DNA of 19,655 nucleotides from a virus. Taxonomy: Duplodnaviria; Heunggongvirae; Uroviricota; Caudoviricetes. The position numbers were made by a program. Positions 3,001 to 6,000 of this stretch are shown here, one piece after another; position 1 is the first letter of the stretch, and the number at the start of each line of letters is the position of its first letter. The stretch lies in IMG/VR virus record IMGVR_UViG_2671180577_000021; one strand, 5' to 3'.

Positions 3001-6000
3001 GTACAGAAGAATGGATGGGCGAACACAGTCGGTAAAAATAAACAATTTTAATGAACTGTTTGAACGGATCGATCACCAGGAATACCGACAAATTCTGGCT
3101 GAAACAGAGCAGGAGAACCATCTGAAAAAATTACGCGCCATGCAAAGGAGATAAACCGGTAAAGGTGTTCGCGATAAAGGTGAATATCGGCAATGAATAA
3201 CAATCCTCGCACTCGCGGGGATTTCTTTTATCTGAACTCGCTACGGCGGGTTTTGTTTTATGGAGACAAGAAATGTCAGATTTGGCTATGAAGGTTTTGA
3301 AATGGCAATCGACTGGCGATGTTGGCATCAGTAGCGCAACTCTTGCCTCAATCGCATGTGGACTGAAAAAGAATATCTATGGTCATCACTTCGGCGCTCC
3401 ACATGACGCAGCAGACTTCCGGCGATGCGTTGCACTTGTTGAGCAGATTCCAGAAATCAGAGATTCATTCGACAAGGTTGCAAAGCGCGTTCCGGCATTC
3501 AAAGGCATCCTCAACTAATGGGATTCCCTCGTCGCTCTGTTGAAGTCTGAAATGAAGATACACGGAAACAAAGCACCAGAGACTTACAGAAGAATTAGCG
3601 AGCTACGCAAGGACTAACCACAGCCTCACACTCAATGAGGCCTGTTCATTTCTCAAGATATCCAGACCTACCATTGCCGCATCAATGCGGCTTTTCTTGC
3701 GTGTAATTGCGGAGACTTTGCGATGTACTTGACACTTCAGGAGTGGAATGCACGCCAGCGACGCCCAAGAAGCCTTGAAACAGTTCGTCGATGGGTGCGC
3801 GAATGCAGGATATTCCCTCCTCCGGTTAAGGATGGAAGAGAGTATCTGTTCCACGAATCAGCGGTAAAGGTTGACTTAAATCGACCAGTAACAAGTAGCC
3901 TTTTGAAGAGGATCAGAAATGGGAAGAAGGCGAAGTCATGAGCGCCGGGATTTACCCCCTAACCTTTATATAAGAAACAATGGATATTACTGCTACAGGG
4001 ACCCAAGGACGGGTAAAGAGTTCGGATTAGGCCGAGACAGGAGGATAGCAATCACTGAAGCAATACAGGCCAATATTGAGTTGCTATCCGGGAACAGGCG
4101 TGAGTCACTGATAGACAGAATTAAAGGCGCTGACGCAATCACTCTTCATGCGTGGCTTGACCGATATGAAACAATCCTCAGCGAGAGGGGTATCAGGCCG
4201 AAAACTCTACTCGACTACGCCAGCAAAATCAGGGCAATCCGAAGAAAATTGCCGGACAAACCGCTCGCTGACATATCAACGAAAGAGGTGGCAGCAATGC
4301 TAAACACCTACGTAGCAGAAGGTAAAGCGGCTTCCGCAAAATTAATCAGGTCAACCCTTGTTGACGTTTTTCGTGAGGCAATAGCCGAGGGGCATGTGGC
4401 TACGAATCCGGTAACAGCAACCCGCACAGCAAAATCAGAAGTAAGGCGTTCAAGACTGACAGCTAATGAATATGTCGCGATTTACCATGCAGCCGAACCG
4501 CTCCCAATCTGGCTGAGGCTGGCAATGGATTTGGCTGTCGTTACAGGGCAGAGAGTAGGCGATTTATGCAGAATGAAATGGTCAGACATAAACGACAACC
4601 ATCTTCACATTGAGCAGGGTAAAACAGGGGCTAAGCTCGCCATTCCGCTGACGCTAACGATTGACGCGCTCAATATCTCATTGGCTGATACACTACAGAA
4701 ATGCAGGGAGGCCAGCGGCAGTGAAACAATAATTGCATCAACGCATCACGAACCGCTTTCCCCGAAAACAGTATCTAAGTATTTTACAAAGGCGAGAAAT
4801 GCATCTGGACTCTCATTTGATGGAGACCCGCCAACATTCCATGAACTGCGCAGCCTGTCGGCGAGGCTATACCGGAATCAGATTGGCGATAAGTTTGCTC
4901 AACGTCTTCTCGGGCATAAATCAGATTCAATGGCGGCGCGTTACAGGGACAGTCGCGGGCGGGAGTGGGACAAAATTGAAATATCATAATGGTTTTATTT
5001 TGATTAATAATGACCAGCGCACATTAACATATTGATAATTAATGAAATTTTTAATATACAACTTCCATGTCATAAGTTGTTGCAGACTGACTGCGCGCAT
5101 TCCGTTGTCAGTTTTCGTGGCGCTTCCGGTGTGGTAGATGACGTAACGCCCCATCCAGACCATTAAGTGCTGGGCATCGCCCTGATCGAAAAAAATCATA
5201 TCGCCAGGCAGCGCCTGGTTTATGTCCTGGCCAATAAACTGGCTGTTGTACTGAATCAAATTAATCGCGGTCACGTAGGGGCCGGTTTTCCCGTTCCCCT
5301 GATTCCAGTTTTGCGCCAGTTGACGCTGTCCAGGTGTTAGCGTCATCTCTGGCGGCAAATACTGGCTAGAGAAACCGTTACTTTTTAGCCATTTACTATC
5401 GTGAACTTTCAGCGTCTCGTTCGCCGCAAATCGCACCAGGCCCGCACAATCCTGCTGATACCAGCGTGGACTTGGCCCCTGGCGGAGCTGTTCTTGTGCA
5501 ATGCGTACAAACCAGGCGCGAAACAGCCCGGATTGTTCGACATTCAGCATTTCGCTATGGGCAACAACACAACACAGCCAGCAAATCAGCGCCAGCAGCC
5601 CGTGCCTCATAGCGGCTGCCAGGTTATGGGTAGCCACTGCCAGGCGGCACCGGGTTCCATCTGGGCCAGCTTCATGACATAACGCGGTTGTTGAGATAAA
5701 GCGTCCAGCTTCGGCATTAATAAAGTTTGTGCGGCGTTATAAAAAACCGGTTCGAGATTCTTCGGCAGACTGGTCAACGTTTCGTTACGCAGCAGTTTCG
5801 CCACGCCTTGTGGATTGATATAGAGCGGAACGATGCCATCAGTGGGTATTACATCCACCATTGCCGGGCGGTTTTTATTCAGTGTTTGCAGGGCGTTATT
5901 AACCAGCGTGTCATCGAGGGAGAAAAGCAGCGTTTTGTTTTGCATCGCCAGCGACACGCGGAAAAAATAATCCGACATTAATTGATCGGGTTGCGCCGCC

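Follow-up and report, generated by a model that had tools for sequence, protein, structure and literature searches.

A predicted HK022-type attL junction in Escherichia coli yfaT that exchanges the conserved YfaT tail for phage attachment-site sequence

The IMG/VR virus record IMGVR_UViG_2671180577_000021 (Caudoviricetes) is a stretch of 19,655 nucleotides, referred to here as the window, that carries one end of a lambdoid prophage and the host chromosome next to it. Where the two meet, the host gene yfaT has lost its conserved 3' end and its open reading frame (ORF) continues into phage DNA. The explanation that fits best, and that is considered very probable as a whole, is that a prophage with an HK022-type integration module has its attL inside yfaT, that the YfaT tail is lost and that the downstream genes yfaS, yfaQ and yfaP (yfaSQP) are split off, with the consequences for expression that would follow. 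Nothing was found against the main structure of the junction. Prophage insertion at the end of yfaT is already catalogued in the literature, and its structure is confirmed here. The features that meet at the junction are the following.

3723-3941, plus strand: xis, excisionase of 72 amino acids, from the ORF list; it overlaps the 5' end of int as in lambda and is annotated as an excisionase by RefSeq in near-identical genomes
3919-4989, plus strand: int, HK022-type heterobivalent tyrosine integrase of 356 amino acids, identified by Pfam matches and alignments
4984-5610, minus strand: yfaT', hybrid ORF of 208 amino acids, with its ATG at 5610-5608 and its TGA stop at 4984-4986
5062-5610, minus strand: residues 1-183 of yfaT', host coded
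4987-5061, minus strand: residues 184-208 of yfaT', coded by the phage P' arm

The break point was located by a megablast search of 5,426 complete E. coli genomes with window positions 4400-6200 as the query. The matches fall into two classes: 176 genomes (about 3%) cover the whole query and have the int-yfaT junction, while the great majority start at query base 663, which is window position 5062. The alignment with the K-12 derivative JW5503 breaks at the same position. An earlier note, made from the window alone, had placed a prophage at the 3' end of yfaT and proposed that the C-terminus of YfaT is phage encoded, and these comparisons bear out both proposals. The phage-coded stretch of yfaT' has a G+C content of 20% and the host part of the gene 53%. 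Native YfaT of K-12 has 207 residues and the hybrid 208, but their C-terminal ends are different. The same note had put the tail at about 27 codons and had the stops of yfaT and int overlapping. The tail is indeed phage coded, but it consists of 25 sense codons plus the stop. The two stops are as close as was claimed, yet they abut rather than overlap, the TGA of yfaT' (complement of 4984-4986) lying against the TAA of int (4987-4989); read on the other strand, the int stop becomes the last leucine codon of yfaT', and it is the two coding ranges that overlap, by 6 bp.

An open run of 25 codons is reached in 8% of shuffles of the AT-rich P' stretch. This is common enough by chance that the tail can be regarded as a fortuitous reading of the P' arm, the length of which needs no special cause. 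The P' arm of the related strain TW08637 lacks one base of an A-run (locus extract L003, 1000-1090, against window positions 4984-5061), which changes the frame of the tail and gives a hybrid of 201 amino acids. Since the replacement tail differs between lysogens in this way, it is not maintained by selection.

The sequence of the junction indicates that it is an attL with the arrangement B-O-P', the int-side end of a lambdoid prophage. Its parts, all read on the minus strand, were assigned by alignment with lambda and HK022.

4986-4995, minus strand: P'3, predicted arm-type Int site AAACCATTAT, colinear with the lambda and HK022 P' arms
4997-5006, minus strand: P'2, predicted arm-type Int site TAATCAAAAT, colinear with lambda and HK022
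5007-5016, minus strand: P'1, predicted arm-type Int site TGGTCATTAT, colinear with lambda and HK022
5025-5037, minus strand: H', predicted site of the integration host factor (IHF) type, TATCAATATGTTA, which fits WATCAANNNNTTR and is colinear with lambda H'
5059-5065, minus strand: C', core-type Int half-site GAAGTTG on the phage side, aligning with C' of lambda and HK022 (TAAGTTG)
5066-5072, minus strand: O, 7-bp overlap TGACATG, the strand-exchange region, aligning column for column with lambda TTTATAC and HK022 AGGTGAA
5073-5079, minus strand: B, core-type half-site CAACTTA on the host side, from the three-way alignment

The three-way alignment compares the int-side junction with the far junction, as read in TW08637, and the empty K-12 site. 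TGACATG(GAAG) is common to all three, which is the repeat of the overlap expected of an attL, and the full common core is CTT[A/C]TGACATGGAAG. The base next to the overlap is C at the far junction and A in the window and in K-12, so strand exchange would have occurred to the right of that base. The core sites of the window's system and of HK022, each given as left half-site, overlap and right half-site, are these.

attP of the window's phage: CTCCTTC - TGACATG - GAAGTTG
attB in host yfaT: CAACTTA - TGACATG - GAAGGAC
HK022 C-O-C': ATCCTTT-AGGTGAA-TAAGTTG
HK022-type host site at torS-torT: GCACTTA - AGGTGAA - AAAGGTT

All eight half-sites fit nnMCTTn when read towards the overlap; those of the window's system then read CAACTTA, GTCCTTC, CTCCTTC and CAACTTC. 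The lambda C-O-C' is CAGCTTT-TTTATAC-TAAGTTG. The reconstructed attP is colinear with those of HK022 and lambda over about 335 nucleotides at 69-75% identity, and follows the order sib hairpin, P1, P2, Xis/Fis region, core, H' and P'1-P'3. By this colinearity, a P' arm with an IHF site and three arm-type sites appears to lie between the core and int, and the label of P' arm used in the earlier note was correct. Since the coordinates of the hybrid tail coincide with C', the IHF site and the three arm-type sites, the YfaT' tail would be their translation.

Integration would thus have proceeded by site-specific recombination of the lambda/HK022 type into the 21-bp attB CAACTTA-TGACATG-GAAGGAC, which codes for YfaT Q178-D184. 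The attP core, with TGACATG between HK022-like half-sites, would direct the phage to yfaT instead of torS-torT. Exchange within 5066-5072 would join yfaT codon 183 to the P' arm. From there the yfaT' ORF would extend by 25 codons across C', the IHF site and the three arm-type sites, ending at the stop that lies against that of int.

The integrase itself belongs to the HK022 group. It matches PF09003 (Arm-DNA-bind_1), PF02899 (Phage_int_SAM_1) and PF00589 (Phage_integrase), and it combines an arm-binding N-terminal domain with an R-K-H-R-H-Y catalytic domain, as do lambda/HK022-type integrases; when it is aligned with lambda and HK022 Int, all three share the catalytic residues R212, K235, H308, R311, H333 and Y342. 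The protein is 98% identical to HK022 Int, 95% to Int of phage H19J and 76% to lambda Int, and it is 100% identical over residues 1-355 to Int of the phage Stx1a_NIID112183. At positions 99, 282, 283, 287 and 319, which presumably distinguish the core specificity of HK022 from that of lambda, its residues are D, P, K, K and R, as in HK022. Its C-terminus ends in ...EIS, that of HK022 in ...EIDK. By these alignments the integrase is an HK022 Int except at the last residue. For Xis, the identity to its counterpart in a torS-torT prophage is 99%. The flanks of Stx1a_NIID112183 encode TorS and TorT, and its annotated duplication, CTTAAGGTGAATAAG, is the HK022 attachment site. The int DNA of the window is identical to that of the torS-torT phage save for the last 45 or so nucleotides, where the changes are synonymous, and the divergence continues through the P' arm and core. 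The 3' end of int thus looks like a module boundary, as far as these alignments go.

The module is therefore like that of HK022 in its integrase, its excisionase and its attP layout (sib, P1, P2, C-O-C', H', P'1-3), and unlike it in its core, where the overlap is TGACATG against AGGTGAA, C is CTCCTTC against ATCCTTT and C' is GAAGTTG against TAAGTTG. The attP arms are only about 71-75% identical to those of HK022, and the HK022 attB lies between the genes torS and torT whereas the target here is inside a gene. For HK022 Int, the overlaps of attB and attP must match perfectly while the arm regions need only be similar (PMC5512741). An integrase that has residues 1-355 in common with that of a torS-torT phage could be taken to mean that a phage specific for torS-torT had entered a secondary site in yfaT by accident. 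This is very improbable, as the phage side of the far junction and contiguous copies of attP elsewhere carry TGACATG, an exact match to yfaT with 5 of its 7 positions unlike AGGTGAA, and the junction is present in 176 genomes. Because the overlap of attP is TGACATG rather than AGGTGAA, the simplest reading of the sequences is that yfaT holds the cognate attB and that an altered attP overlap brings an unchanged integrase to it.

The contiguous copies were found in two collections. No match to an exact 27-mer across the reconstructed attP was found in IMG/VR, because the P' arm varies. The core 18-mer matched 13 true attP contigs there, besides 3 unrelated sequences, and in all 13 the order is P arm, CTCCTTC TGACATG GAAGTTG, P' arm and int 3' end without interruption. 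In 451 complete E. coli genomes, a contiguous attP block adjoins nleA. An example of such a block of nleA, attP and int remnant is in the ompW prophage of the enteropathogenic E. coli (EPEC) strain E2348/69, where the adjoining int is a pseudogene (locus extract L107, 7744-10715), and nleA-attP blocks are also embedded in prophages of O55:H7 strains. These blocks look like fossils of the phage-form junction that are carried along with the effector locus. Since the contiguous copies carry TGACATG, it is the phage's own overlap, and this too counts against an off-target event.

The native YfaT tail of 24 residues is gone from the ORF, has moved to the far junction, and nothing similar stands in its place: 5 of 24 aligned positions are shared between the phage-coded and native tails (MAFFT). 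The earlier note held that the tail is probably not native, and that the same end in orthologues from empty-site strains would speak against this; the tails of those orthologues prove to be different, so a host-identical gene end is not carried by the phage. Against Pfam DUF1175, native YfaT scores 195.9 bits over profile positions 20-225 of 226 and the hybrid 153.2 bits over 20-202. The hybrid does not give the full-length DUF1175/MagC family match that includes the segment DTRWIP...NPNF.G.YRL.FL, as the invariant tail residues are missing. YfaT aligns with Pseudomonas aeruginosa MagC (PDB 7BK8) at 347 bits over residues 21-206, with the tail inside the alignment, and judged by this similarity it is the orthologue of that protein.

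Conservation of the tail was assessed in 80 orthologous loci, taken from contigs at one genome per species and belonging to Escherichia, Superficieibacter, Enterobacillus, Yersinia and mostly Pseudomonas. Few parts of YfaT are as well conserved as the replaced segment, in which DTRWIP and NPNF.G.YRL.FL are invariant or nearly so. No variation is seen at 15 or more of the 24 lost positions (D184, T185, R186, W187, I188, P189, N193, P194, N195, G198, Y200, R201, L202, F204 and L205), although the 80 orthologues differ elsewhere by about 30%. This makes it unlikely that YfaT' still works, with the last 24 residues dispensable and only operon polarity of importance. Residues 1-183 do keep a strong DUF1175 match (153 bits), and the Prokaryotic Genome Annotation Pipeline (PGAP) annotates the hybrid as a complete protein, but in addition to the invariant positions that are lost, the tail varies among lysogens with the one-nucleotide change in the A-run. 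YfaT' would be non-functional or destabilized.

The nearly native length of the hybrid, 208 against 207 amino acids, might suggest instead that the phage supplies a working substitute for the yfaT 3' end. Phage 21 and e14, a case cited in PMC3603311, integrate in icd and bring a similar 3' end that keeps the ORF functional. The yfaT case resembles theirs in the site-specific entry into the 3' part of a conserved gene and in the duplication of the gene end at the far junction, but differs in that the substitute tail is unrelated to the native end. Restoration of this kind is hardly credible here, since so few tail positions match, the Pfam match stops at the junction, the bases that encode the tail are exactly those of the IHF and arm-type sites in a P' arm of the lambda type with 20% G+C, and open runs of this length arise in shuffled sequence at the frequency given above.

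The window stops within the prophage, and the far prophage end was read in TW08637, which is 99.4% identical over window positions 1-5400. Its prophage is about 50 kb long, with early, replication, lysis, head and tail genes of the lambda type, and ends with nleG and nleA. It shows decay in the form of a terminase pseudogene and an element of the IS66 family within J. Past nleG and nleA there is a 90-nucleotide remnant of the yfaT 3' end, then intact yfaS, yfaQ and yfaP, and then rcsC. The claim that the prophage displaces yfaS, yfaQ and yfaP holds in this strain, where they lie about 50 kb from yfaT'. In K-12, yfaS follows yfaT and is a pseudogene.

The attB lies in an unusual part of yfaT. 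In 73 distant orthologues, whose third-position G+C averages 0.83, synonymous-site conservation peaks at codons 175-190, where the frequency of the top third-position base is 0.95-0.98 against a gene mean of 0.78, and the only fully conserved A-ending codons are CAA178, ACA181 and CGA186. Of the 80 loci, 73 match the 21-bp attB with no more than one mismatch and 76 have the exact overlap. A stretch of about 39 nucleotides, CAACAACTyATGACATGGAAGGACACCCGATGGATACCC (window equivalent 5041-5088), is nearly identical from E. coli to high-G+C Pseudomonas, rare A-ending codons included, which makes attB available in many genera. The motif TGGAAGGAyACnCGATGGAT occurs in 78 of the 80 loci, from Escherichia to Pseudomonas, and the ORF that opens at its ATG begins MDT[Q/R]R..., has a signal-peptide-like segment and continues into the alpha-2-macroglobulin gene. 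In TW08637, yfaS (magD) encodes 1,534 amino acids from this ATG and 1,504 from the GTG start annotated by PGAP, which is probably 30 codons too short. The position of the start is as follows.

K-12 locus extract L001, 2990-2992, minus strand: yfaS ATG, within yfaT codons 186-187
TW08637 locus extract L004, 3285-3287: the same yfaS ATG

This start makes yfaS overlap yfaT by 67 nucleotides, with the ATG 12 nucleotides beyond the 7-bp overlap. The Shine-Dalgarno sequence of yfaS (AAGGA) is within the B' half-site of attB, which is replaced by C' at window positions 5059-5065. The conserved attB stretch is probably explained, on this sequence evidence, by the overlapping ribosome-binding site and start codon of yfaS. 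An RNA element with CsrA/RsmA GGA sites had been considered as the source of the synonymous conservation and was dropped for the simpler overlap with the yfaS start, seen in 78 of 80 loci. Since yfaS starts inside yfaT past the crossover, the insertion falls exactly between the conserved C-terminus of YfaT and the translation start of yfaS; in TW08637 the yfaS ribosome-binding site and ATG are intact at the far junction.

The effects on transcription follow from the gene order. The stop of yfaA and the start of yfaT share ATGA at 5607-5610, and yfaA and yfaT' are probably still coupled in translation through this overlap, with the link to the promoter retained. A consensus scan found no convincing terminator-like site between the yfaT' stop and the interior of int, and antisense read-through from yfaA-yfaT' into int and xis is plausible and fits the geometry. 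At the far end, nleA is oriented away from yfaS, the sib/tI hairpin is turned in the opposite direction, and the scan found no good match to a promoter upstream of yfaS. At both junctions, the promoter and terminator scans gave counts at or below the expectation from shuffles, which makes them uninformative for or against read-through and cryptic promoters. In the lysogen the yfaSQP genes, cut off from the yfaA promoter, probably have low transcription. If Int and Xis excised the prophage precisely, yfaT and the operon would be rebuilt, and the attB sequence restored in this way is CAACTTATGACATGGAAGGAC.

Several points weigh against this account, most of them against its functional side. The far junction is known from TW08637, which is another strain than that of the window. 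Cryptic promoters in the AT-rich phage end could feed yfaS and are beyond the reach of consensus scans. The yfaS pseudogene of K-12 suggests that the cluster is dispensable in some lineages, and the loss of YfaT may have a mild phenotype.

Matches to a 600-nucleotide K-12 probe centered on attB were obtained in 5,389 genomes, and in 5,199 of these the probe is uninterrupted, that is, the site is empty. The torS-attL-int junction is present in 192 genomes. Some empty-site strains match yfaA-yfaT at 100% identity, so that occupied and empty sites coexist in very similar backgrounds. The yfaT lysogens found are mostly related strains of the enterohemorrhagic E. coli (EHEC) type with serogroups O26, O103 and O111, and the 176 genomes include many related EHEC lineages. 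In strain E2863 (locus extract L002, 4535-5542), the region that corresponds to window positions 1-3700 differs, with ninE and hypothetical genes upstream of xis in place of the exo-to-ea22 block; prophages at the yfaT site are thus mosaic or partly deleted, strain by strain.

The yfaT disruption has been recorded in two surveys. Bobay et al. 2013 (PMC3603311) include yfaT in their list of protein genes that prophages disrupt on integrating. Mageeney et al. 2020 (PMC7192596) named it among their new cases of 'regulated gene integrity', and the supplement gives islands of 50 kb and 14 kb in DUF1175 (Eco557.50.DUF1175 and Eco615.14.DUF1175) with an attB:attLR score ratio of 1.206. The prophage described here resembles those entries in the gene, the size of about 50 kb and the C-terminally shortened, unrestored DUF1175 match. 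The accessible text of the two surveys gives no description of an HK022-type Int, of the overlap change or of the coincidence of attB with the yfaS start. The integrase type, the overlap change and the yfaS-start coincidence add detail of a known kind and do not define a novel type of system.

Regulated gene integrity, or active lysogeny, would mean that integration turns yfaT and yfaSQP off and that conditional excision by Int and Xis turns them on; it would add to the preferred explanation, an attL in yfaT with loss of the tail, rather than replace it. The conserved domain of the target is disrupted without restoration, which is the mark of such cases, and besides the inclusion of yfaT by Mageeney et al. 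with its score ratio, the window has intact int and xis genes, the far junction keeps the translation start of yfaS, so that excision would remake a working operon, and both states of the site occur in hosts with 100% identity over yfaA-yfaT. The decayed TW08637 prophage looks grounded, however, and the lysogens are mostly related strains of the EHEC groups. It is doubtful that the prophage acts in this manner.

At least ten genomes, TW08637 and 97-3250 among them, have both the yfaT and the torS-torT junctions. In the one pair compared, that of TW08637 (torS-torT locus at 3016059-3019578), the integrases of the two prophages are 96% and the excisionases 99% identical, and the overlaps differ. 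Judged by these sequences, cross-excision between co-resident prophages is plausible, and recombination between them should be blocked. The different overlaps explain how two prophages with the same Int can share a chromosome at different sites. A further proposal, for which the chances seem small, is that the yfaT prophage is a working switch for the Mag-type operon. Its Int and Xis would be interchangeable with those of a co-resident torS-torT prophage, often of the Stx1a type, so that induction of either phage would excise both and the restoration of yfaT and yfaSQP would be coupled to induction of the Shiga-toxin phage. Were this so, recombination between the two prophages would be prevented by the difference between their overlaps.

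In P. aeruginosa, MagC is part of a six-gene mag operon around the type II alpha-2-macroglobulin MagD (PMC5764988). The order yfaA-yfaT-yfaS-yfaQ-yfaP parallels magB-C-D-E-F, with the pairings other than yfaT/MagC inferred from gene order, while the E. coli cluster as found here has five genes rather than six, and in the strain of the window the prophage divides it into two parts. For annotation, this means that the 208-amino-acid 'DUF1175 domain-containing protein' of lysogens is a host-phage chimera and not an intact YfaT. For phage biology, it offers a natural case of an integration module that would have been retargeted by a change of attP overlap and core with the integrase protein held constant. 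For EHEC, the point is that about 3% of sequenced E. coli have their only type II alpha-2-macroglobulin operon interrupted by an effector-carrying prophage (nleG, nleA); the phenotypic effect may be small.

The remaining features of the window are the following.

1-4989, plus strand: early-left arm of the lambdoid prophage, from exo through xis to int
253-933, plus strand: exo
5607-7295, minus strand: yfaA (DUF2138), 562 amino acids, with a Pfam DUF2138 match of 959 bits and RefSeq annotation
7444-10071, minus strand: gyrA
After gyrA, in this order: ubiG (plus strand), yfaL (minus strand), and nrdA, nrdB and yfaE (plus strand), all host genes

GyrA of the window has leucine at position 83 (codon 9823-9825, minus strand) and the wild-type aspartate at position 87. 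The substitution S83L is the classic first step towards quinolone resistance.

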